A DNA stretch of 64,000 nt from the IMG/VR virus record IMGVR_UViG_3300002835_005179, positions 1 through 64,000 of that record, one strand, 5' to 3'. The translations under genes and the position numbers were made by a program. The notes below the pieces were generated by a model that had not been told where the DNA came from, searched no databases, and saw only the letters and a list, made by a program, of their open reading frames with translations. Shown in pieces: positions 10,845 through 64,000 of this stretch. How positions within the stretch are numbered: the stretch's first letter is position 1; every line of letters starts with the position of its first letter. The DNA comes from a virus (lineage: Duplodnaviria; Heunggongvirae; Uroviricota; Caudoviricetes).

Positions 10845-12104
10845 ATGTCTAATCTACAAAACAAATGGAAAGCGATTCTGGAACACCCAGAAGCTGCTCC
10901 AATTAAGGACGCTTACAGAAAGCAAGTAACTGCAGTTCTTTTAGAAAACCAAGAAAAGGCTCTAGCAGAATCAAGAAAGATCATCACTGAATCTGGTGTT
11001 CCATCAAACGTTGCAGGAAACGTTGATAAGTTTGATCCAATTCTAATTGCTCTAGTTCGTAGATCTATGCCAAATCTAATGGCTTATGATATCTGCGGCG
11101 TTCAGCCAATGAACATGCCAACAGGTTTGATCTTCGCAATGAAGTCAAAGTATGGTTCAGGCGCAACTGGTCCTCTATCTTCAACTGAAGCTCTATTCAA
11201 TGAAGCAGATACTGACTTCTCTGGAACTGGTACTCACCAAGATAATATCTTTAGAACTTCTTCAGATACACTATCTACTTATGGTACTGGTATGGCAACT
11301 GCAGACGGCGAAGGTTTCTCACCACTAAACATGGGTTTCTCTATCGAGAAGGTAACAGTTACTGCAAAGACTCGTGCTCTAAAGGCAGAATACTCTCTAG
11401 AATTGGCACAAGACCTAAAGGCTATGCACAATCTAGATGCAGAATCTGAGCTATCTAACATCCTATCAACTGAAATCATGGCAGAAATCAACCGTGAAGT
11501 TATCAGAACTCTATACAAGATTGCAAAGTCTGGTGCATCTTCTGGTACAACTACAGCAGGTTATTTCGATCTTGATACAGATTCTGACGGACGTTGGTCA
11601 GTTGAAAGATTCAAGGGTCTAATGTTCCATGCTGAAAGAGAAGCAAACCAAATTGCAAAGGCAACTCGTAGAGGAAAGGGTAATATCATTATCTGCTCTT
11701 CTGACGTAGCATCTGCTCTAGCAATGGCAGGCAAGCTAGATTATACTCCAGCTCTATCTACTGATCTAAACGTCGACGATACTGGTAATACATTTGCTGG
11801 TGTTCTAAACGGCAAGTACAAGGTCTATGTTGATCCATACTTCGCAGTAGGTTCTGGCGTAACATTCTCTGACGTCATGGTTGTTGGGTACAAGGGATCT
11901 AACGCTTATGACGCTGGTTTATTCTACTGCCCATACGTTCCATTACAAATGGTCAAGGCAGTTGATCCAGATACATTCCAGCCAAAAATAGGTTTCAAGA
12001 CCCGCTACGGCATGGTCGCAAACCCACTATCTGGCGACGGAAACACTCTAGGTGCAGCTTCCAACGATTATTATAGACTCGTCAAAATTAAAAATATTCT
12101 CTAA
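10845..12104 (+). CDS. gp23: Major capsid protein (gp23-like)
   Basis: 419 aa. The N-terminal propeptide-like region and the block VRRSMPNLMAYDICGVQPM are typical of T4 gp23. Confidence 0.9.
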   Translation: MSNLQNKWKAILEHPEAAPIKDAYRKQVTAVLLENQEKALAESRKIITESGVPSNVAGNVDKFDPILIALVRRSMPNLMAYDICGVQPMNMPTGLIFAMKSKYGSGATGPLSSTEALFNEADTDFSGTGTHQDNIFRTSSDTLSTYGTGMATADGEGFSPLNMGFSIEKVTVTAKTRALKAEYSLELAQDLKAMHNLDAESELSNILSTEIMAEINREVIRTLYKIAKSGASSGTTTAGYFDLDTDSDGRWSVERFKGLMFHAEREANQIAKATRRGKGNIIICSSDVASALAMAGKLDYTPALSTDLNVDDTGNTFAGVLNGKYKVYVDPYFAVGSGVTFSDVMVVGYKGSNAYDAGLFYCPYVPLQMVKAVDPDTFQPKIGFKTRYGMVANPLSGDGNTLGAASNDYYRLVKIKNIL

Positions 12105-12246: not shown

Positions 12247-13056
12247 ATGCCTAATAATATTTATTGTACATACCTTACAATCTACAAAGGTAACAAACTC
12301 CCTCTATATTATATTGGTTCAACTTCTGTTAATAGAATTAACAAAGGTTATCATGGAACCGTGTCTTCTAAGAAATATAAAGATATCTATAAACAAGAAT
12401 TAATATCTAATCCTCACCTATTCAAAACAAAAATACTTACAACACATGAAACCAGAGAAGAAGCTTATGAGAAAGAATTGTTCTTTCAAATAAAATTATC
12501 TGTAGTTAAATCACCAATGTATTTCAATGAATCATTGGCTGTGACAAATGGTTATTTTGGTCGTGCTCTAAATGGAAAAGATAATCCCCTACACGGTAAG
12601 AATCATTCAGAAGAAACAAGAAGAAAGATGTCTGAGAATAGAAAAGGAAAATATAAAGGAATTCCTAAGTCTGAAGAACATAAAAGAAAAATTGCATTGG
12701 CAAATACAGGTAAGAAACATTCTGAAGAATCTAAACGAAAAATGTCTTTAAATCATATTGGTATTGTTGCTTCTGATGAAACTAAGAAGAAATTATCTGA
12801 TATGAGAAAGGGTGAAAAGCATCCTCTTTATGGAAAGACACATTCTCCAGAATCAATTCAGAAGATGAAAGAGACGCATAGTAATCGTTCAGAAGAAACA
12901 CTAAAGAAGCTGTCTGCTGCCAAGAGTGGTGAAAATAATCCTAGTTATGGAAAGAAATGGTTCCATAATCCCATTACCTTAGAACAAATTAGGATCCATC
13001 CTAACAATCCTCCATCTGGATTCTTTCCTGGTAGAATTCCTAAAATTAATAAATAG
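12247..13056 (+). CDS. Free-standing GIY-YIG homing endonuclease (Seg-like) with repeated NUMOD3-type motifs
   Basis: N-terminus IYCTYLTIYKGNKLPLYYIGST, followed by repeats of the type HSEETRRKMS and HSEESKRKMS. Inserted after the capsid terminator. Ends in TAG. Confidence 0.8.
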   Translation: MPNNIYCTYLTIYKGNKLPLYYIGSTSVNRINKGYHGTVSSKKYKDIYKQELISNPHLFKTKILTTHETREEAYEKELFFQIKLSVVKSPMYFNESLAVTNGYFGRALNGKDNPLHGKNHSEETRRKMSENRKGKYKGIPKSEEHKRKIALANTGKKHSEESKRKMSLNHIGIVASDETKKKLSDMRKGEKHPLYGKTHSPESIQKMKETHSNRSEETLKKLSAAKSGENNPSYGKKWFHNPITLEQIRIHPNNPPSGFFPGRIPKINK

Positions 13057-15956: not shown

Positions 15957-16360
15957 CCTTCTGTTTCAAGAGTATAATATACTTTCTTGATATCAAATTC
16001 AAATATTGCCCGCATACAACCAGAACAAGGTTTCGCCAACCCATAGACTATACTATTAGTCAAAATATCATACTTAACACGACAAACATATAGACTAACT
16101 TTCTTGAAATCTTCTACATCTATTTGTCTCAATGCATTCTTAATTGCAGATATCTCTGCGTGTAGATAGATAGACAGATCTTTGTTTGTTGCATATTTAG
16201 CTTGGAGTGGAGATGATTTCATAGAATTTACTCCAACCGAAACTATCTTGTTTTTGTAAACAATAGCGGCAGCAAGTTTAGCGCCAGAAACTTTCGGATT
16301 AGCTATCGCTATTTGTTTGAGGAGAGAAAAGACTCTAGAGATCTTCAGCTCAGATTCCAT
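15941..16360 (-). CDS. Cytidine/deoxycytidylate deaminase-family protein
   Basis: Zinc motifs HAE (LHAEISAI) and PCSGC. Confidence 0.8.
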   Translation of the reverse strand: MESELKISRVFSLLKQIAIANPKVSGAKLAAAIVYKNKIVSVGVNSMKSSPLQAKYATNKDLSIYLHAEISAIKNALRQIDVEDFKKVSLYVCRVKYDILTNSIVYGLAKPCSGCMRAIFEFDIKKVYYTLETEGWDQL

Positions 16361-16366
16361 ACATTA

Positions 16367-16395
16367 AGTATACCGTATCCGACGGGTAAAGTCAA
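16367..16395 (-). promoter_or_regulatory. Sigma70-like promoter TTGACT-N17-TATACT placed 6 nt before ATG
   Basis: Minus strand reads GCTTGACTttacccgtcggatacggTATACTtaatgtATG. Confidence 0.55.
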
Positions 16396-19570: not shown

Positions 19571-19680
19571 AAAGAATATCTCCTTTATTTTCAATATCTT
19601 ACTGCAAACTATTGATTCTAAAGAGAATATTCTTTCGAAAAAAACTTGCTTCGGTTGAATGGATAAGGTATAATGGTTCT
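19571..19680 (+). promoter_or_regulatory. Conserved promoter cassette, copy A (GAATAT-box, TCAAT..ATTGA dyad, TTGCTT-N17-TATAAT-N6-ATG)
   Basis: Aligns over about 110 nt with 41130-41236 and the reverse complement of 63877-64000. -35 at 19646-19651, -10 at 19669-19674, ATG at 19681. Confidence 0.65.
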
Positions 19681-19911
19681 ATGAAAAGGAAAACTGTTCG
19701 GGTGACTGATGTTGTCGATACTGTGAATCGAATTTTAGATGTTTCCACGTGTTCTGTCGATACTCGCTGGGGCATGATTGCTGTTCTTGAACAGATTCTT
19801 CACGACTCAGGAAATTACAAGGGATATAATAATGTCAAAGACGGAAAGATTTGTGGATACAAAGAACAGCCTGATGACACGAGACGATATTATTATGGCG
19901 GGACGAAGTAA
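19681..19911 (+). CDS. Hypothetical protein (76 aa)
   Basis: The ATG at 19681 lies exactly 6 nt after TATAAT. The track ORF uses an upstream TTG inside the promoter cassette. Confidence 0.5.
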   Translation: MKRKTVRVTDVVDTVNRILDVSTCSVDTRWGMIAVLEQILHDSGNYKGYNNVKDGKICGYKEQPDDTRRYYYGGTK

Positions 19912-43208: not shown

Positions 43209-44012
43209 AATACGAGAAAGACGATTATTTTTTCTAGTTTCTACCATTTGAGATTTTTGTTTCAAACTAATAATTCGTCCTGGAATAAGTAAATGATTTG
43301 TATCGTCGATATGTTCTAGATCCTTTACTTTAATAAATATATTTTTTGTCCCATCATTATACCACTTCCCTCCCTTATTATTTTTCTTATTTTTATTTTC
43401 TATCAAAGAGGCGGACCGTTTTTTCTTCGTTTCTTCAGATTGTTTTTTATTAAAAGAAGGATTTTTAGAACCCAATTTAGATTCAGACATATTTTTTTTC
43501 TGTTTATCGGTTCTTTTTTGTCCGACGACATATGTATTGCCCAATTTAGATAAACCCATTTTCTTACGGTGAATTTCAGATTTTCTTTTACCTAGTAGTG
43601 CAGCAGATATTTCGGCTTTGGTTTCTGGAGTGTGGTTCTTTCCATACCTAGGAGACTTTTCTCCAGTTTTTCCATACATAGGAGACTTTTCTCCAGACCT
43701 TTTGTCTAGTGCTTCCGGAGTGTATTTATAACCAGACACCCCTTCCCCGCCATCGGTCTTATTTCTCAGGATTCCTGTTCCTAGATCTTTTCGACCATAA
43801 AACTGTATTAGTCTTATTTCTTCGTCGAAGGCTTCTGATTCTGACAGATTTTCGAAGAGAATAGATATTCTAGAAGATTCAACAGGACGAAATCGTCTCT
43901 TACACCAGGCTCTGTTACCCTGACCTTTTCCAATATAATATGGAGTCCCATCTTCTCTTAGAAAAGCATAGACATAGAATCTGGCTGGGTCTTTATAAAT
44001 AGTTTTAGACAT
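43191..44012 (-). CDS. Free-standing GIY-YIG homing endonuclease with NUMOD3-type repeats
   Basis: FYVYAFLREDGTPYYIGKGQGNRAW, followed by GEKSPMYGKTGEKSPRYGKNHTPETK. Start set at MSKTIY (44012), preceded by GGAGG. Confidence 0.8.
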   Translation of the reverse strand: MSKTIYKDPARFYVYAFLREDGTPYYIGKGQGNRAWCKRRFRPVESSRISILFENLSESEAFDEEIRLIQFYGRKDLGTGILRNKTDGGEGVSGYKYTPEALDKRSGEKSPMYGKTGEKSPRYGKNHTPETKAEISAALLGKRKSEIHRKKMGLSKLGNTYVVGQKRTDKQKKNMSESKLGSKNPSFNKKQSEETKKKRSASLIENKNKKNNKGGKWYNDGTKNIFIKVKDLEHIDDTNHLLIPGRIISLKQKSQMVETRKNNRLSRISDNKV

Positions 44013-44077
44013 ATAAGCTACCTCCCAAGTAGTTTGTGTGTTCAGATGGGAGAAAGCGAACACTTTCTCCCCATAAT

Positions 44078-44085
44078 TATTTATA
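44078..44085 (-). promoter_or_regulatory. T4-type late promoter TATAAATA (minus strand)
   Basis: Exact match on the minus strand upstream of the homing endonuclease gene. The hairpin GGAGAAAG..CTTTCTCC (44049-44070) lies between the promoter and the ribosome-binding site. Confidence 0.5.
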
Positions 44086-44108
44086 AAAATATATTCTTGA
44101 CTATTTTA

Positions 44109-44147
44109 TCAGAATTTGAAATTATCAAAGTTCTTCTTATATGAAGA
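44109..44147 (-). pseudogene. Duplicated relic of the helicase (gp41) gene 3' end
   Basis: About 38 of 41 nt are identical to 45063-45104. It encodes ..YKKNFDNFKF-stop, like the true gp41 C-terminus. Confidence 0.7.
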
Positions 44148-44212
44148 TCCTCACCGTACTTGCGAATTGTATGAAAGTTCTAATTGGTATAAGTTTAAGA
44201 AATTCATTCGCT

Positions 44213-44239
44213 TAGAAAAATAAAGGGGCCGCTGGCCCC
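44213..44239 (-). terminator. Rho-independent terminator
   Basis: Minus strand reads GGGGCC-agc-GGCCCC followed by TTTATTTTT. The TAG stop of ORF 44239 abuts the stem. Confidence 0.65.
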
Positions 44240-45051
44240 TATTTCTTTATTTGTAATAACATTTTCTGAAGTGCGTTAAATAGATTCTTCTCATTAGAGA
44301 ATTGTTCATAATTCATCATTAATTCTAAATCGTTATCTAACTTGGAATTAGTATTTGTCATAATCAATAAAGACTCATATTCTTCATATCCTTCCGTGTC
44401 AACATAAACAGATTCGACGGATTCAACTCCATCTGGAGTCATAAACACTGCAGACAATTCATCAGGATTTTCTGGAATAGAAGTAAGTTTATCTGACAAA
44501 GAAATAGATTCTATAAAATCATCTTTTGTTCTTTGTAACTCTTTGGATACAAATAATCTGACGCCAAGTATTGCCCAAATCTTGATTCCTTCTCTTCCAT
44601 ATAAATTCTTCCACATCTTTCTTGCACCAGCAGATTGAGTATCTAATGCTGCAAGATTGATTCCCCTCTTTATCAATCCCATATATGTTGTAGGCATAAT
44701 TCCTTTTCCAATATATTCTGTTTTCAAATATGAATTGATGATCTCATAAAAATCATATCCGTACCGATTATATATTGGTCTCTTGTATAGATGCAACATA
44801 CCAATACATCTTGGGGTCTTGTTGACCATAACCCAATTAGTTATGTATGTTACTGGCCCCTTTGTAAAATATCTGACTTCTATAATAATATCATCTTTTG
44901 TTTTAAACAAAAGAGGCTTATCAAATTCACTATATATTGTTGCATATTCTTGTGAACTTGGAAAATCTCGTGTTGATTTAGCGAAATCTTTCGTGATTGA
45001 AAGATTTCGCTGTAATTCTACTATATGATTAGAAAATTCTTTAAATAACAT
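44239..45051 (-). CDS. Hypothetical protein (270 aa), weak GNAT-like motif
   Basis: EYIGKGIM..SAGARKMWKNL resembles GNAT motif A. The gene is bracketed by the gp41 3'-end duplication. Ends in TAG. Confidence 0.45.
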   Translation of the reverse strand: MLFKEFSNHIVELQRNLSITKDFAKSTRDFPSSQEYATIYSEFDKPLLFKTKDDIIIEVRYFTKGPVTYITNWVMVNKTPRCIGMLHLYKRPIYNRYGYDFYEIINSYLKTEYIGKGIMPTTYMGLIKRGINLAALDTQSAGARKMWKNLYGREGIKIWAILGVRLFVSKELQRTKDDFIESISLSDKLTSIPENPDELSAVFMTPDGVESVESVYVDTEGYEEYESLLIMTNTNSKLDNDLELMMNYEQFSNEKNLFNALQKMLLQIKK

Positions 45052-45062
45052 ACATATATTTA

Positions 45063-46463
45063 TTAGAATTTGAAATTATCGAAGTTCTTCTTATATTTCG
45101 AAGAACCATATCCTGAATCAAATTCACCATAATTATTATCCTGATAAGGATCTTGAATACCACCTTCTCCATCAATCTGAATATCACCGATATCAAATAA
45201 TCTCATCTTAGATCTATCAATACCAACCAAGAATTTCTTATTCTTAGTCACATCATTATATCTATTCTTCAACTGTTTAATCATCAACTGACCAAGTTTT
45301 TCTAATTCTTCTGTATTAATTAGAGCAATCATGAAATCGCAAGTGGCGGCGACGCCGAAACTTTCTGCAATATCACCCATACCAGCATCAGAATCAGACG
45401 CTCCAGATCTCGTAAATTGTGATGCGGATACGATCGGAAGATTAGCTTCTACAGCAAGACCACGAACTTCTTCAGCAATAGACTTAACCAACATATAAGA
45501 ATTTACTTGACCGTTATTCTTAATTCTTGAAGAAGCACAAATATTCAAATAATCAATATAGATAATATCTGGAATAAACTTCTTCTTTAGAGCAAGTTCA
45601 TGTAGAAGATATCTGAAGTGTGATACGTTGGCTGAACCAGTTGGATATTCCTTGATAACCAACTTGCCTGGTGTTCGACTTTCTAACTTATTAATTAGTG
45701 ATAAGAATTGTTTCTTAGAAATTTGTTTTAGAGTATCTAAGGTAATATCCAATAGATTCGCATCAATTCTCTCGGCGATTCTTTCTTCAGCCATTTCACA
45801 TGTAATATACAAAACATTCTTACCATCAAGAACATTAGAAGCTGCCATATGACACATCGCCAAAGTTTTTCCAGCATTAACACCACCAAGAATTAAGTTT
45901 AGCGTTTTTCTCGGAAGTCCTCCACCAGTAATAAGATTTAAATTCTGGATATCAAAACGAATTCTCTCTTCTTTCTTATGATAAAATTCAAATCTTGTTT
46001 CTGCATCAGAAACAAAATCATGACCAACTGATGGATCGAATGTAATTGCAAGAGCTTCTTTAAGAATTTCAGGAATAGAACCTTTATCTCTAGTATCTTT
46101 TTCATCAGATATAATCTTAATAGAATCTAAGATTGCATTATGCAATGATTTTTCTTTACAAAATGATTCAGTCTGTTTGATCAAGAATTTTAAATCAGTT
46201 TGCTCATTCTTCGACCAAGAATCTAATAGATTAGATATTACTTCTGAGTCTTCAATTTTAATCTTCTTAGATTCAGAAGTCATAATCTTAATAGCTTCTA
46301 CGGAAGCTTGTTTATTATATTCTGTGACAAACGAATTAATGAATTTAAATATACTTCTATCATTATGATCCGAAAAATATTCAGACTTTAGAAAGGGTAA
46401 TACTGATCTAGTATATTCTTCGTTATGTAAGAGATTCTTTAAAACCAAATGTTCAATTTTCAT
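45063..46463 (-). CDS. gp41: Replicative DNA helicase (gp41, DnaB-like)
   Basis: Walker A GGVNAGKTLAM and DnaB-type blocks. Start set at MKIEHL (46463), preceded by AGGAGAA. The longer track ORF reads into the degenerate repeat. Confidence 0.9.
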   Translation of the reverse strand: MKIEHLVLKNLLHNEEYTRSVLPFLKSEYFSDHNDRSIFKFINSFVTEYNKQASVEAIKIMTSESKKIKIEDSEVISNLLDSWSKNEQTDLKFLIKQTESFCKEKSLHNAILDSIKIISDEKDTRDKGSIPEILKEALAITFDPSVGHDFVSDAETRFEFYHKKEERIRFDIQNLNLITGGGLPRKTLNLILGGVNAGKTLAMCHMAASNVLDGKNVLYITCEMAEERIAERIDANLLDITLDTLKQISKKQFLSLINKLESRTPGKLVIKEYPTGSANVSHFRYLLHELALKKKFIPDIIYIDYLNICASSRIKNNGQVNSYMLVKSIAEEVRGLAVEANLPIVSASQFTRSGASDSDAGMGDIAESFGVAATCDFMIALINTEELEKLGQLMIKQLKNRYNDVTKNKKFLVGIDRSKMRLFDIGDIQIDGEGGIQDPYQDNNYGEFDSGYGSSKYKKNFDNFKF

Positions 46464-46674
46464 AATTAGTTTTCTCCTGTGATAACGACCAAGAATTAGA
46501 GTCTGAACCTGAGCCTGAAGAAGATAAATTTGCAGACCAAGATTCTGATTTGGGTATCTCTCCGGACCAAGACCAGGATCCCGATCTGCGTGAATTTCCA
46601 ATTCCACTCCATGATCCAGAAAATAAACGAGTCCAATATATATATTCTGATTTCTTTCTTAATTTGTGAATCAT
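46453..46674 (-). CDS. Diverged Ser/Gly/Trp-rich small protein (73 aa), member of the Ser-Xaa family
   Basis: Basic leader MIHKLRKKSEYIYW followed by SGSWSGIGNSRRSGSWSWSG.., using mixed Ser codons (tct, tca, agt, tcg, tcc). It has an ATGA overlap with the upstream gene and an 11-nt overlap with the gp41 start. Confidence 0.55.
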   Translation of the reverse strand: MIHKLRKKSEYIYWTRLFSGSWSGIGNSRRSGSWSWSGEIPKSESWSANLSSSGSGSDSNSWSLSQEKTNYEN

Positions 46675-46865
46675 AAATTGGATGTCCCGGATTTAGAACC
46701 ATATCGATATCTACTGTCGGTAATCCATGATAGATAATGATTAGATTGGCCAGACTTAGAAGATAAGAAGATACTCGAAGAGGTTCCGCATCTATGGAGA
46801 CCGGAGAAGAACCTCTTCTTGGAATTAAATCTCAATCTAATAGATTTTCTTTTTGTTGTTAACAT
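46671..46865 (-). CDS. Diverged Ser/Gly-rich small protein (64 aa), member of the Ser-Xaa family
   Basis: Basic leader MLTTKRKSIRLRFNSKKRFF followed by an S/G-rich tail with mixed Ser codons. Confidence 0.5.
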   Translation of the reverse strand: MLTTKRKSIRLRFNSKKRFFSGLHRCGTSSSIFLSSKSGQSNHYLSWITDSRYRYGSKSGTSNL

Positions 46866-46896
46866 ATTTCCATTTATCTTGAATAATCTAGAATAA

Positions 46897-47064
46897 TTAA
46901 TTTCCAGACCTAGACCAAGACCTAGACCTAGACCTAGACCAAGACTCAGACCTAGACTCAGACCTAGACCAAGACCCAGACCTAGACCTAGACCTAGACC
47001 AAGACCAAGACCAAGACCCAGACCTAGACCAAATAATTCTTTTGTAAATTGATTTCTTTATCAT
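46897..47064 (-). CDS. Ser-Xaa dipeptide-repeat small protein (55 aa)
   Basis: MIKKSIYKRIIW leader plus a (TCTNGG)n repeat, ending SGN-TAA. Confidence 0.5.
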   Translation of the reverse strand: MIKKSIYKRIIWSRSGSWSWSWSRSRSRSGSWSRSESRSESWSRSRSRSWSRSGN

Positions 47065-47068
47065 ATTT

Positions 47069-47275
47069 TTAGTTAGACCTAGACCCAGACCTAGACCTAG
47101 ACCAAGACTCAGACCTAGACCCAGACCAAGACCAAGACCCAGACCCAGACCAAGACCTAGACCTAGACCCAGACCAAGACCCAGACCCAGACCCAGACCC
47201 AGACCAAGACCAAGACCCAGACTCAGACCTAGACCTAGACCCAATATTTTTTTTGTAAATTGATTTCTTTATCAT
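47069..47275 (-). CDS. Ser-Xaa dipeptide-repeat small protein (68 aa)
   Basis: MIKKSIYKKNIG leader plus the repeat, ending RSN-TAA 4 nt before the next ATG. Confidence 0.5.
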   Translation of the reverse strand: MIKKSIYKKNIGSRSRSESGSWSWSGSGSGSGSWSGSRSRSWSGSGSWSWSGSRSESWSRSRSGSRSN

Positions 47276-47652: not shown

Positions 47653-48693
47653 TTAGTCCTCTTCTGCATATTCTTCCGTTGTTTCATCTTCTACAATCTT
47701 ATTAGATAACTTAAATTTATAGATAACATAATCTTGAAAAGTTTTATCTTGCATAATAGATTCCCAAAAATCTTCAGTATTTGTGGCATCTAATCGATAA
47801 TTCTTATCTTCTCCTACTTTTTGGTACCATCCATTTTTTGGCTTGATTACATGTCCCGATTCCAAAGCGAGATCCATCAATCCAGAATATTTACTAATTC
47901 CGTCATTGAATTTAACTTGAAATGTTAATTTACTCTTCTCTTTTACGAATCTAGATTTCTCAATGTTGATAGTAAAATTATAACCCACTAGATCGGTACC
48001 ATCTTTTTCTTGTGTGCGTGTTACAATAAAAATCTGATTTGCAGAATATGTCACTGATGTACCACCACCAACGACGGCTTTAGAGTAGAGCTCCATTGTA
48101 GCATAAACGTGATTTATTACAAGACAAGGAATATCTTTCATAGTAAGATGGGGAGTAATGATTCTCAACAATGATCGAATCGATTTTGCTCTGGTCATAT
48201 CTGCAACTGATTTTTCATCAACAGCATCATCTACTTCTTTCTTAGAAGAAAGCGATCCTAATGAATCAATCATGACGAATACTTTATCACCACGTTGTAT
48301 TTCATTCAATCGTTTGACTATATCAAATTTAAGTTGTTCGATATGTTCGATTGGAATATGAATGATTCTAGAAGCGTCGATTCCATACATCTCAAGATAT
48401 TCTGGTGTAATACCAAACTCAGAATCATAGAGAAGTGCTACGGAATCTTCATACTTATCAAAGTAAGCCTTCATACAATAAAGAGAAAGAAGTGTCTTGT
48501 ATGACTTTGATTGTCCGGCAACTACAGTTAAACCTGGAACTAGACCACCATTCAGATCTCCAGAAAATGCAATATTTAAGATAGGAAGTTCGGTGCTAAT
48601 GCAATCTTTAATATTGAAGAACGATGATTCGGATAAGATCTCTGCGTTTTTTACAGATCCTGCTTTTTGTAATTTGTCTAATAGTTTACTCAT
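47653..48693 (-). CDS. uvsX: Recombinase UvsX (RecA-like)
   Basis: Walker A-like VAGQSKSYKT (compare T4 GPSKSFKS) and a RecA-fold block VFVMIDSLGSL. Confidence 0.9.
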   Translation of the reverse strand: MSKLLDKLQKAGSVKNAEILSESSFFNIKDCISTELPILNIAFSGDLNGGLVPGLTVVAGQSKSYKTLLSLYCMKAYFDKYEDSVALLYDSEFGITPEYLEMYGIDASRIIHIPIEHIEQLKFDIVKRLNEIQRGDKVFVMIDSLGSLSSKKEVDDAVDEKSVADMTRAKSIRSLLRIITPHLTMKDIPCLVINHVYATMELYSKAVVGGGTSVTYSANQIFIVTRTQEKDGTDLVGYNFTINIEKSRFVKEKSKLTFQVKFNDGISKYSGLMDLALESGHVIKPKNGWYQKVGEDKNYRLDATNTEDFWESIMQDKTFQDYVIYKFKLSNKIVEDETTEEYAEED

Positions 48694-48739: not shown

Positions 48740-51253
48740 TTAGTCGAAAAACGAATCAAGAGTTGATTTGTTTTCTAATGACCAAGAAATTGCATCTAAA
48801 ATAGTAGAAATAGGTTCTATAAAAGTCTTTTGAAATTGTAAATTGTAATCTATAAATTCATGTAATTTAAGTTCCGGAGGAAGAATTGAATTGAAAGAAA
48901 TTATATTCTCTCGAATCATATTCGGTTCTTTAAGATACAAGAATTTAATCTTTTCTCCTTCGTGGATCTCAGTATACTTCTTTAGAAGATCATTCTTTTT
49001 CAAGAGATTGTTGTAAACAAGTGAACCTCTTACATGTATTGGAGTTCCTTTTGTATAGATAGAAATATTAGATGAATATGTTTTTAGATTATTAACACCT
49101 CTGGGAAATGCAATATCTTCTGGAGAAAGCGAAAGAAATTCTTTTTTTACATTATCAATATATTCACGCAAATCAGACTCATTCGATTTCATGATAATTT
49201 TAATTGCTTCTTTAATTTTACCACGACAAAATTTTGGAGTTGAAGATTTAACAGCTTCAATACCCATGATTTTCATTTTTGGTTCTGAATATCTTACTCC
49301 TTCTGAATCATAAACATTTAACATATATCTTTTCTTTGCCGTCCAAATACCACGATCGGCGATCGATTCTCTCTTCATAATCATTTTCTGTGAGTATGAA
49401 TTTAGATAATCAGCTAGATCTTCATAAGAATCATTAATTATTTTCTGAAGTTGTTCTTTGCATATTTTATCTAGAAGATCAACTGTCTGTTCGTTAGTCT
49501 TATTGGGAAAGAATTTGTTTACTAGATCTTGAAGATCTAAATATGCCGAGTCCGTATCTATTGCGATAACATAATCTTTATTCGTTTTTAATATATTTCT
49601 TAGATATCCATTCAATCTATTAGAAACCCAACGAATAGCCAATTGGCCAGATACAGTAATTGATTCTGCAATTCTCTTATCTGAGAATCTAAAATATCTA
49701 TTGGCAATTGCACCATAAGCTGAATTCAATGCAATCTTCTTAGCCATCTGCAGATTCTTATACTTTGAGATATCATTCAGAATTTGCTTAGTATCTTCAC
49801 CAGTCTTATTTGCGGATTCTAAATCTTTTTCCGCTTGAATCATTTTTGACTTATAAATCTTACGTTGTTCGAACATCCAGGACATGAGCTGTGTCAAAAA
49901 TCCATCCTTATCTCTACGATACAATTGTCCTGTCGCAGACATTGAGAAATTATTTTTCTTTAAATCTGATAGATCTATCTCCTTAGATAACAATTTATCT
50001 ACAGAAATACCAGGAATAATCTTATCTATAATTGTGTCCGGAGAAAAATTCCCGCCCATAATAAGATGAGGGTACAGCGATTGTAAATCGAAAGAAACTA
50101 CCCAATTATAGAATCCAGGTCTGGGTTCTTTTACATAAGCTCCTTCAATTTCTTCTTTAATTGATTCTTGTCTTTCAGGAATAACATAACCTCTTGAAAG
50201 TAGATGATTGTAAATAATAACATCCCACATTCTAATTTGAGAGAATACGTCATCGAAATTGACTTTTGCGTCATAAGCCATAGTCATAGCCAACTCGATT
50301 AATTTCATCTTATTTTCAAGAGAAACAACTAAATCCACATCTTTCGCATTGTATTCGAGAAATTTATTATAATCTTCTTTATAAAGAAGGTGAAGAGAAC
50401 CATACTCAGAATAATCTAATTTATTTTCACCAAGTTCAACAGAAGCAATATAATCTAATTTATAAGATTCCTGAGCAGAGTAAGTGAATTTCTTATAGAG
50501 ATCTAGATAATCAAGAACAGAGATACCGAACATATCATATGTCTGGACTTTCTTACCCATAATTTCAATAGTCTCTTCACGTAAGATTTTCCATGGCGAA
50601 AGATTCTTTGCCTTGGCTTCACCAAATACACGTGTAATTCTATTGATTAGATAGGGAATATCGAAGAATTTAACGTGCCATCCCGAAACAACATCAGGAT
50701 AATTCGATTTCCAAACCTTCAAGAATTTCTCTAGTAATATCTCTTCAGATTCACAAGGAAGATATATCGCATCGGTCAAATTTCCTGTGAAATGATCAAA
50801 TCCCAATACAATCTTTTTCTCTAGATTAGAAAATTTAATTGTAATGGCATTAATTTCTTCAATGGCATTTGAAATAGAAGGAAATCCATTCTCACAAGTA
50901 CATTCGATATCTATATATGCAACCACAATATCTTCGGTTTTCCATTGTATATCACTGTTAGTGTTTTGTGATATCCATTGATATTGTGGTTGTATATTAC
51001 CATATACTGAGAAATTACCAACATCCTTATTGCGTGCGATAAATTCTCTTGTTTCTTTTACATTCCCAGCATCAAATTCAATAACAGGATATTCATCTAA
51101 GTTCTTAAATTCCGATACTGTATTTGGTGAAGAGGCAGGAATCCAGATTCTAGGATGAAAATCATTTATCCTATCTTGTTCTCGCTTCCTGTCCTCAACA
51201 TAACGAACATATAAAGTATTTCCCCAAGATTGAACATTAGTATAATATTTCAT
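48740..51253 (-). CDS. gp43: Family B DNA polymerase (gp43)
   Basis: Exo I YIDIECTC, SLYPHLIMG, KIALNSAYGA and AIDTDSAYL. Confidence 0.9.
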   Translation of the reverse strand: MKYYTNVQSWGNTLYVRYVEDRKREQDRINDFHPRIWIPASSPNTVSEFKNLDEYPVIEFDAGNVKETREFIARNKDVGNFSVYGNIQPQYQWISQNTNSDIQWKTEDIVVAYIDIECTCENGFPSISNAIEEINAITIKFSNLEKKIVLGFDHFTGNLTDAIYLPCESEEILLEKFLKVWKSNYPDVVSGWHVKFFDIPYLINRITRVFGEAKAKNLSPWKILREETIEIMGKKVQTYDMFGISVLDYLDLYKKFTYSAQESYKLDYIASVELGENKLDYSEYGSLHLLYKEDYNKFLEYNAKDVDLVVSLENKMKLIELAMTMAYDAKVNFDDVFSQIRMWDVIIYNHLLSRGYVIPERQESIKEEIEGAYVKEPRPGFYNWVVSFDLQSLYPHLIMGGNFSPDTIIDKIIPGISVDKLLSKEIDLSDLKKNNFSMSATGQLYRRDKDGFLTQLMSWMFEQRKIYKSKMIQAEKDLESANKTGEDTKQILNDISKYKNLQMAKKIALNSAYGAIANRYFRFSDKRIAESITVSGQLAIRWVSNRLNGYLRNILKTNKDYVIAIDTDSAYLDLQDLVNKFFPNKTNEQTVDLLDKICKEQLQKIINDSYEDLADYLNSYSQKMIMKRESIADRGIWTAKKRYMLNVYDSEGVRYSEPKMKIMGIEAVKSSTPKFCRGKIKEAIKIIMKSNESDLREYIDNVKKEFLSLSPEDIAFPRGVNNLKTYSSNISIYTKGTPIHVRGSLVYNNLLKKNDLLKKYTEIHEGEKIKFLYLKEPNMIRENIISFNSILPPELKLHEFIDYNLQFQKTFIEPISTILDAISWSLENKSTLDSFFD

Positions 51254-63627: not shown

Positions 63628-63876
63628 TTAAACTTGAGTTAGAAATAATGAGTCCTCATTATCTTTAATGAATTTCAGGACATCAAATAAAGTGTTCAAA
63701 ATTTTATGATCATACGAATATTTCGAAGGGGACTTGGGATCAACATAACGGTGTTCAAAGGAACAATTGTTAGCATCGTACGATCCAATATACTCGTCGG
63801 TCTTGATGTCATAAAAATCCAACCAAGAACCAGTCAACGAAGGACCGATTTTAATTTTAGAAGTAGCGACGATCAT
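63628..63876 (-). CDS. Hypothetical protein (82 aa)
   Basis: Track ORF. The ATG lies exactly 6 nt after the TATAAT of cassette copy C. Confidence 0.45.
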   Translation of the reverse strand: MIVATSKIKIGPSLTGSWLDFYDIKTDEYIGSYDANNCSFEHRYVDPKSPSKYSYDHKILNTLFDVLKFIKDNEDSLFLTQV

Positions 63877-64000
63877 ACAACCATTATACCTGATCCAAAA
63901 CCGAGGAGCAAGTTTTTTTGAAAGAATATCTCATTTAAAATCAATGACTTGCTGCAAGTGATTGAAAACAAATAGAATATTCTTTCACACAATCTTCAAG
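63877..64000 (-). promoter_or_regulatory. Conserved promoter cassette, copy C (minus orientation, runs off the window)
   Basis: Minus strand reads GAATATTC..TTTTCAATCACTTGCAGCAAGTCATTGA..GAGATATTCTTTCAAAAAAACTTGCTC-N17-TATAAT-ggttgt-ATG. Confidence 0.65.

Follow-up and report, generated by a model that had tools for sequence, protein, structure and literature searches.

Among the described systems closest to the locus reported here are the Seg enzymes of phage T4 (SegA-G), free-standing GIY-YIG endonucleases which carry out intronless homing with co-conversion of flanking markers, and control by a late promoter together with a hairpin has been described for several T4-type endonuclease genes (PMC2988022). 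The part of the same account that deals with homing where homology exists on one side only, citing Parker et al. 1999, describes for T4 an illegitimate repair at microhomologies after extensive resection, which was proposed as a route to ectopic sites (PMC2988022). Nuclease genes have also been found at boundaries of genetic exchange between phages (Barth, Dunham and Seed 2023, PMC10448857). In this study we analysed a stretch of 64,000 nucleotides (nt) of an uncultured tailed phage (positions 1 to 64,000 of IMG/VR virus record IMGVR_UViG_3300002835_005179, hereafter the window), in which a free-standing homing endonuclease gene lies next to a second, detached copy of the 3' end of the replicative helicase gene gp41. 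The preferred reading, to which we assign a probability of roughly 0.75, is that a genome of one arrangement (A-type) acquired a 1274-nt segment from a genome of another arrangement (B-type) by one-sided, illegitimate double-strand-break repair during acquisition of the endonuclease gene, with the donor flanks co-converted.

Arrangement of the locus and its relatives

Two parental gene orders were distinguished among relatives of the window. In the A-type order, gp41 is followed by an open reading frame of 270 amino acids (aa), termed ORF270, then by a terminator, and then by the convergent genes ORF88 and Rnl1, the latter coding for an RNA ligase; in the B-type order, the endonuclease gene stands directly between gp41 and the convergent Rnl1. 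The minus strand of the window carries gp43 (48740-51253), uvsX (47653-48693), gp41 (45063-46463) and ORF270 (44239-45051) in this order, followed by the terminator (44224-44240), the second copy of the gp41 end, the promoter TATAAATA, a hairpin, GGGAGG and the endonuclease gene (44012-43191), which converges on the plus-strand Rnl1-type gene (42111-43208) with an overlap of 18 nt. The features of the locus are as follows.

45063..46463, minus strand: resident gp41, DnaB-like replicative helicase, 466 aa, ATG at 46463; Pfam DnaB_C and DnaB
44239..45051, minus strand: ORF270, 270 aa, resident gene, 99.6% identical to that of contig L122
44224..44240, both strands: bidirectional intrinsic terminator hairpin GGGGCC-AGC-GGCCCC, scored on both strands
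44158..44223, plus strand: ORF88 remnant, last 21 codons (TCELYESSNWYKFKKFIRLEK) and stop; tblastn match to ORF88 residues 68-88, 90% identity
44109..44157, minus strand: gp41 3' end of foreign (B-type) origin, left as a relic; homology to A-type DNA reaches no further than 44158
44013..44108, minus strand: 5' leader of the endonuclease gene with T4-type late promoter, hairpin and Shine-Dalgarno sequence; conserved in L126, L127 and L130
44085-44078, minus strand: T4-type late promoter TATAAATA in the leader, 24 nt from the relic
44071-44048, minus strand: hairpin of 10 base pairs in the leader
44026-44021, minus strand: Shine-Dalgarno sequence GGGAGG, inside a small weak stem
43191..44012, minus strand: free-standing Seg-like GIY-YIG/NUMOD3 homing endonuclease gene, 273 aa; NUMOD3 E=1.2e-12; phrog_314 'homing endonuclease'
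42884..43208 (325 nt), plus strand: B-class C-terminal domain of Rnl1, aa 259-365; 94% identical to L126/L127, no DNA homology to A-type
42111..42883, plus strand: native A-type N-terminal adenylyltransferase part of Rnl1; 771/773 identical to L122, 73-75% to B types

Contigs bearing the endonuclease gene in the form seen in the window (L108-L121) were compared with the endonuclease-free contigs L122 (from ENA) and L123-L125 (from Logan). The blastn results showed that the window is 99.2% to 99.6% identical to L122 over 40001-42883 and 99.4% identical over 44158-46964, while window 42884-44157 had no blastn match to L122, these 1274 nt standing in place of 558 nt of that contig. The endonuclease segment is thus present in L108-L121 and absent from L122 with 99% identical flanks, and the endonuclease gene is absent from L123, L124 and L125 as well. 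Both forms occur together in the samples ERZ27248034, ERZ27271735, ERZ27272061 and ERZ27272042 and in JGI 3300033993, 3300034104, 3300036398 and 3300042299. The gp41-end motif was found twice only in endonuclease-bearing contigs, and once in endonuclease-free contigs where it was detectable (L001, L122-L124 and L129). These alignments show an A-type backbone in which only 42884-44157 is B-type, so that it was the endonuclease segment that was inserted, and ORF270, between the two repeats, is resident. An earlier reading of this DNA made without database searches (the sequence-only reading) had taken an ORF270 cassette to be the insert, and this is contradicted by L122, which has 99% identical flanks, keeps ORF270, lacks the endonuclease segment and carries a single copy of the motif. 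The other part of that proposal, i.e., a scar of recombination or homing beside a homing endonuclease gene, was supported by the comparison of relatives.

The route to the A-type contigs was through L001, a 99%-identical IMG/VR contig (3300032093_002305), which is collinear with the window from gp43 through gp41 and ORF270 to the terminator and diverges exactly at window position 44158, immediately ahead of the relic. On the opposite strand of the L001 tail the C-terminus of a small protein is encoded, which as a query retrieved three proteins of 88 to 95 aa (P0001-P0003), and two of these led to L122 and L123-L125, all with the A-type order, an Rnl1 of 370 to 375 aa and a single helicase end. 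Because L001 ends 160 nt past the junction and looks joined head to tail, the argument is based on the independent contigs L122-L125. L001 joins window position ~52580 to ~41178 through a dispersed repeat and is probably mis-joined or artificially circularised; this intergenic repeat of ~60-115 nt, partly inverted, was found at 41009-41245, 19572-19687, 63873-63984 and 16355-16380. A search of cultured-phage DNA matched only gp41, at 63% to 66% identity. When ORF270 and the endonuclease were searched for in IMG/VR, a single close contig was obtained, and the relatives of the endonuclease found there were all distant.

In the Rnl1 N-domain (41747-42883) the window and the L123 lineage share 99% identity, but across the ORF88 remnant, ORF270 and gp41 (44158-46464) only 85%. 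Since the mosaic boundary of L123/L124 sits at the same place, exchange appears to recur in the Rnl1/ORF88 region also where the endonuclease gene is missing.

The repeated helicase end

The second gp41 3' end (44109-44157, a repeat of 45063-45104), which the sequence-only reading had pointed out, is real and not a chance similarity. A repeat search of the 64-kb window showed 44105-44142 and 45059-45096 to be identical at 36 of 38 positions at a spacing of 954 nt, and the 30-nt core of the repeat has exactly two occurrences in the window and none in 100 dinucleotide-preserving shuffles. With a 3-nt gap permitted the match extends to 44147/45104, with a weaker extension to ~44157, and positions 44151-44157 can only weakly be assigned to the gp41 end. 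On the minus strand the relic codes for GSSYKKNFDNFKF-TGA, and the resident gp41 end for GSSKYKKNFDNFKF-TAA.

The relic differs from the resident end by four changes, three of which (TGA and not TAA, TTT and not TTC, and an absent AAA codon) are the state of gp41 in the B-type contigs L126 and L127, which makes the relic the donor's gp41 end and not a resident copy; the fourth is neither an A-type nor a B-type state. The relic is identical to the L127 gp41 end at 42 of 47 positions, is continuous with the collinear block downstream of it, and is contiguous with 1.9 kb of B-type-collinear sequence. An in-situ duplication of the resident gp41 end was considered and rejected on account of the B-type states of the relic. 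The last 42 nt of gp41 (45063-45104), on the other hand, are the native copy of the repeat, being continuous with an L122-like gp41, and over its full length gp41 is 99.6% identical to that of the endonuclease-free L122. At no time was the helicase gene interrupted, so that its integrity did not depend on a duplication, and the target-end duplication which the sequence-only reading had supposed to serve this end is not what was found, the distal copy being foreign and the gp41-attached copy native. The relic is a non-functional donor flank and not a target duplication, and no function is expected of it.

In the automatic gene call gp41 has 514 aa, starts with a GTG at 46607 and extends into a repeat region, and in some relatives the gene is called with 466 aa from the ATG at 46463 (MKIEHLV..), the Pfam DnaB N-terminal match starting at residue 2 of this 466-aa form. 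The shorter start at 46463 is more likely than the GTG at 46607.

The two junctions and the chimeric RNA ligase

The gene at 42111-43208 was identified as a T4 Rnl1-type RNA ligase with both an adenylyltransferase and a C-terminal domain (PF09511, E=1.8e-14; phrog_562 'RNA ligase and tail fiber protein attachment catalyst', E=1.6e-48), and the T4 Rnl1 structure 2c5u was matched with E=9e-12 over residues 52-294 only. At the protein level the ligase of the window matches the A type almost without difference over residues 1-258, while for residues 259-365 its identity is 90% to the B class and 21% to 24% to the A class. The crossover falls within ~4 nt at 42880-42884, at the downstream edge of EKYVLIHHL, the last stretch conserved between A and B types. 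We take residues 247-253 of T4 Rnl1 to lie approximately at the end of the adenylyltransferase domain and the start of the C-domain. It is to these residues that YVLIHHL aligns (PDB 2c5u).

The alignments show the junction at ~42883 to be of the homologous and that at 44157/44158 to be of the illegitimate kind, as judged from the similarity of the parental types at each. The junction at 44157/44158 joins the interior of ORF88 to the donor gp41 end and leaves 21 codons of ORF88; A and B types have no detectable homology at this place, and a comparison with L126 and L127 gave nothing convincing in the way of microhomology. An identical junction region of 271 nt was found in 13 loci from 12 samples and three sources (ENA, Logan and JGI), suggesting a single, real event that has since spread.

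The two classes of Rnl1 C-domain are 21% to 28% identical to each other. The A class was found in four endonuclease-free lineages (64% to 92% identical among themselves) and the B class in three endonuclease-bearing lineages (90% to 96%), and the presence of the endonuclease and the class of the C-domain correlate perfectly across these seven lineages.

The endonuclease gene and its leader

A modular DNA-binding region of the NUMOD3 or I-TevI-like kind was found in the endonuclease, with two to three NUMOD3 stretches; NUMOD3 was matched in all 25 homologues, and the endonuclease profile matched the I-TevI DNA-binding domain 1i3j with E=0.017. In the N-terminal part, Y13-x-Y15, R19, Y25-Y26-I-G28-K-G30, R34, E65 and N84 are invariant in the 25 homologues. 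The top 12 Foldseek hits in the PDB for the AlphaFold2 (AF2) model of this domain (predicted local distance difference test 80-90) were GIY-YIG domains, such as UvrC and PD-T4-3, with probabilities of 0.66 to 0.99, the UvrC chains from Thermotoga giving 0.96 to 0.99. The gene is present or absent between near-identical genomes at an intergenic site between conserved genes, and it is flanked within the A-type backbone by co-converted donor sequence, i.e., the B-class C-domain (325 nt) and the gp41 end (49 nt). The protein is at most 44% identical to any endonuclease of cultured phages. A 30-nt tandem duplication (96% identical) at 43639-43696 within the gene encodes two GEKSP-x-YGK units, and L126 has a gap in the same part (~43561-43760), which fits variation of repeat number in the DNA-binding region.

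The late promoter and the hairpin that the sequence-only reading had placed beside the relic are indeed there. The leader (GTCAAGAA..TATAAATA, hairpin and Shine-Dalgarno sequence) is conserved in L126 and L127, and in L130 it accompanies a 58%-identical endonuclease in an unrelated context with no gp41 relic. Since L130 has the leader without the gp41 fragment, the leader belongs to the mobile gene and the gp41 fragment is donor flank only. Hairpins of differing sequence fold in all three lineages tested, with z = -2.1 to -3.8.

A second GIY-YIG/NUMOD3 endonuclease gene of 269 aa ('..IYCTYLTIY..LYYIGST..') was observed at 12247-13056 on the plus strand, directly downstream of a 419-aa open reading frame (10845-12104) which from its sequence is a putative major capsid protein; it matches the endonuclease of 43191..44012 only in the NUMOD3 part, with 28% to 30% identity. 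Its position presumably resembles that of segD between genes 23 and 24 in T4.

Donor-type genomes

The closest homologues of the endonuclease (66% to 78% identical) all converge on an Rnl1-type gene, and two of the three lie directly after gp41. The contig of P0007 carries gp43, uvsX, a 119-aa open reading frame, gp41 (466 aa), a spacer of 92 nt, the endonuclease gene and a convergent 328-aa gene with an 18-nt overlap, and in L127 the gp41 end (..GGSSYKKNFDDFKF-TGA) is likewise followed by 92 nt and then the endonuclease gene. The window from 44150 down to 42204 aligns to L127 in one collinear block of 1966 alignment columns at 81% identity; L126 gives a similar alignment and has the same 18-nt overlap of endonuclease gene and Rnl1. 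In comparison to the window, B-type gp41 is ~80% identical and the B-type Rnl1 N-domain 73% to 75%. A gp41 followed directly by sequence matching 44108 downwards, which had been expected of relatives lacking the insertion, was therefore seen in L127 and in the gene order of the P0007 contig, but it belongs to a different lineage (gp41 ~80%) and not to a cassette-free relative with the same backbone.

Between L126 and L127, the 3' half of the endonuclease gene and the B-class C-domain are 99% to 100% identical and the flanks 76% to 95%; the near-identity of this unit across otherwise diverged genomes, together with the leader in the unrelated context of L130, is a sign of mobility. The L127 endonuclease gene (L127 1141-1958) is frameshifted near its 3' end, with residues 1-230 in one frame and 230-273 in another, and this copy may be decaying. 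Exact patterns across relic and leader found no donor in metagenome contigs or viral contigs, a protein-guided metagenome scan for the donor gave nothing closer than 58%, and no 'empty' B-type site was found in a viral contig scan with Rnl1.

The gp41 fragment of L126 (143-592) begins with the C-terminal end of an intein (..NDILTHN/SGASDSD..). In L128 (1-3331 and 4833-7989) gp41 is called as 442 + 447 + 159 aa and gp43 in three pieces, one of them with a weak Intein_splicing match; gp41 and gp43 of the window have no intein.

ORF270, terminator and ORF88

The 270-aa reading frame at 44239..45051, present as the sequence-only reading described it, starts 11 nt after gp41 with no duplication in L122, L123 (86% identical), L128 (52%) and L129 (70%), and a 46%-identical ORF270 lies slightly further downstream of gp41 in L002. 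ORF270 is thus regarded as a resident gene, since it is found downstream of gp41 even in relatives whose ORF270 is only 46% to 70% identical. The region 44158-44238 (81 nt, including the terminator) is identical to L122 at 79 of 81 positions, and by this comparison the terminator between the convergent ORF270 and ORF88 is ancestral. The hairpin had been described as the own terminator of ORF270. It exists, but ORF270 does not have it to itself, since either strand gives a terminator score and in relatives the convergent gene shares it.

Intact ORF88 (88-95 aa) occurs in the endonuclease-free contigs L122-L125 and corresponds to P0001-P0003 (L122 10001-10267 being P0001). The alignments show most of ORF88 to be lost in what would be the derived, endonuclease-bearing form, and since a remnant survives in the window, the ancestor had the order gp41-ORF270-ORF88-Rnl, which is the arrangement of L122. 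ORF88 is a small Cys-rich protein with a CxxC near the N-terminus and further Cys residues; it had no PHROG match and only three clusters in 5.8 billion proteins.

The ORF270 family has five protein clusters in the same 5.8 billion proteins, and ORF270 had no Pfam or PHROG match. Its AF2 model has a predicted template modelling (TM) score of 0.71, and most of the top Foldseek PDB hits were GNATs (Naa50, HAT1 and PatZ), with weak values (E~5e-3, TM 0.25-0.4). The JGI label of the 52%-identical homologue is 'GNAT superfamily N-acetyltransferase', and a conserved GxGIMP stretch (G115, G117) stands ahead of a predicted helix at 118-128. A GNAT-like fold is therefore possible; the weak GNAT likeness suggested by the sequence-only reading has some agreement at the fold level and none from Pfam or PHROG, so that it is reasonable but unproven.

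Proposed mechanism and alternative explanations

In the proposed one-sided repair, an A-type genome in a mixed infection would have been cut in the Rnl1-3'/ORF88 region by the endonuclease or by another break. The end on the Rnl1 side would have been resected to the first homology with the donor, which is the domain boundary at ~42883, and would then have invaded the donor, which would have served as the template for the C-domain, the endonuclease gene, the leader and 49 nt of gp41. Finally, the new strand and the other broken end, inside ORF88, would have been joined with no homology between them. Had the event been resolved in a fully homologous way, with a normal second crossover in gp41, ORF270 and ORF88 would have been deleted.

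Several points weigh against this reading or parts of it. The searches for a direct donor, which should have ~100% identity over 42884-44157 and a gp41 that carries on upstream, found none; this makes microhomology at 44157/44158 unreadable, and 44151-44157 could be filler. The break may have had another cause, and both the activity of the endonuclease and its cutting of the A-type allele are putative. The link of the endonuclease with the B-class C-domain is drawn from no more than seven lineages, three with the endonuclease gene and four that lack it. At E<=1 the endonuclease homologues were not matched by the general Pfam GIY-YIG model, and only the LEM-3_GIY-YIG model matched, weakly, in 8 of 25; the sequence-only reading had called 43191..44012 a GIY-YIG endonuclease gene, and the gene is there with agreeing motifs and fold, but given the unmatched general model the assignment depends on the motifs and a modest fold match.

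The strongest alternative is that ordinary illegitimate and homologous recombination between co-infecting A- and B-type phages made the structure, with the endonuclease gene as a passenger and not the initiator. We consider this unlikely, with an appreciable share of probability left to it, because the product does not show that the endonuclease made the break: the structural evidence displays the product and not the initiating lesion, and the frameshifted gene of L127 indicates that inactive copies exist. On the other hand, a homing endonuclease gene forms the centre of the acquired block, the unit of endonuclease and C-domain is unusually identical between diverged genomes, leader and endonuclease recur elsewhere (L130), and the T4 Seg enzymes drive this kind of flank co-conversion (PMC2988022).

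The insertion favoured by the sequence-only reading, in which a cassette of ORF270 and terminator entered at the gp41 end of a gp41-endonuclease-Rnl genome and duplicated the target end, is very improbable. It agrees with the existence of an arrangement without ORF270 in ~80% identical relatives and with the fact that both copies of the repeat do bracket ORF270. However, both flanks are 99% A-type with only 1274 nt of B-type, the stretch enclosed by the repeats has at its end a truncated ORF88, a gene which relatives possess in intact form, ORF270 follows gp41 without a repeat at identities down to 52%, and it is the gp41-attached copy that is native and the distal copy that has foreign states; a second exchange would also be required to restore the A-type across the Rnl1 N-domain and beyond.

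Just as little credence is given to the view that the second copy is not a scar and is a conserved functional element, such as an operator, a recognition site of the endonuclease or part of a promoter. In T4, I-TevI binds an operator which overlaps its own late promoter and resembles the homing site (PMC2988022), and here the relic lies 24 nt upstream of TATAAATA. In B-type genomes, however, the sequence is the plain coding end of gp41, the L130 cassette has the promoter and the hairpin with no such sequence, and the upstream edge of the relic is degenerate, with an in-frame stop. A duplication produced as an assembly chimera has a negligible probability, since the junction is identical in the 13 loci and 12 samples from different pipelines (ENA, Logan and JGI), even though IMG/VR 3300032093_002305 appears joined end to end through the dispersed repeat.

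Other features of the window

Approximately 56 copies of the hexamer AGACCT were observed between gp41 and a 112-aa open reading frame (46906-47241, also 46480-46610), giving overlapping reading frames of GL, GS or RS/WS repeats. The array seems to be variable in length, since the gene called there has 136, 115 and 107 aa in the otherwise identical L108, L109 and L118.

Implications and comparison with known systems

Under one-sided repair, the locus would be a natural record of a free-standing homing endonuclease gene entering a genome that is not collinear with its donor, the outcome being one homologous and one illegitimate junction, a donor gene fragment kept, a resident gene destroyed and the domain of a neighbouring enzyme swapped. 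The sequences offer concrete substrates for mapping the cleavage site of the endonuclease; GIY-YIG enzymes typically leave 2-nt 3' overhangs. For annotation, the case suggests that where a gene end is duplicated beside a homing endonuclease gene, it is the endonuclease side that has newly arrived, and not the genes between the repeats.

The C-domain of T4 Rnl1 confers specificity for the repair of broken tRNA anticodon loops (PMC6379707). It is conceivable, if rather doubtful, that the endonuclease gene and the B-class Rnl1 C-domain form one co-travelling module, in which the endonuclease targets the Rnl1 region of rivals and drives replacement of the tRNA-repair specificity domain. The correlation across seven lineages, the 21% to 28% identity between the classes and the 99% to 100% identity of the module between diverged genomes are compatible with this idea, and if it is true, a selfish element would spread an alternative counter-defence allele through the phage population.

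The locus is similar to a transposon target-site duplication in that direct repeats flank a block of DNA, but the repeat here is 38-49 nt long and imperfect, with a 3-nt indel. No transposase was detected between the repeats (ORF270 having no Pfam or PHROG match), and the repeat search of the window found no long inverted-repeat pair bracketing the block; target-site duplication of the transposon type was rejected, the block between the repeats being resident DNA. In mitochondria, mobile endonuclease reading frames such as that of Allomyces atp6 bring along a replacement 3' end of the host gene, the old end remaining as a pseudo-copy downstream. A duplicated gene 3' end thus lies beside a GIY-YIG endonuclease gene, which is essentially the model of the sequence-only reading. 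In the Allomyces atp6 type, however, the gene carries the foreign end and its native end has become the relic, whereas here the reverse holds and a resident gene lies between the copies.

Like the nuclease genes at boundaries of phage exchange (PMC10448857), the present homing endonuclease gene stands exactly at a mosaic boundary beside essential replication genes; the exchange here is of 1.3 kb with both breakpoints within a few nucleotides, in comparison to an 'HEG island' (HEG, homing endonuclease gene) of more than 10 kb there. With the Seg enzymes of T4 it shares a GIY-YIG catalytic domain followed by NUMOD3-type repeats, a position between conserved replication and repair genes, presence or absence among near-identical genomes, co-acquired flanking donor sequence, and a late promoter and RNA hairpin upstream, and by these testable features the element appears to belong with the free-standing Seg-type GIY-YIG homing endonucleases of T4-like phages. 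It differs in that one end of the conversion tract is non-homologous, which left a scar of a donor gene and destroyed the resident ORF88, whereas nothing of this kind remains after a typical Seg conversion between collinear genomes. One-sided homing in T4 has in common with this locus that homology exists on one side only and that the other junction is non-homologous or microhomologous after resection; as far as that work is summarised in the account cited above, it used engineered laboratory crosses and an intron-encoded enzyme, while here the product is a natural one and involves a free-standing gene in T4-like phages that are uncultured and probably live in fresh water. Public metagenomes still contain the recombinant as well as the two parental arrangements, and the case may thus extend the T4 laboratory model of one-sided illegitimate homing to such phages.

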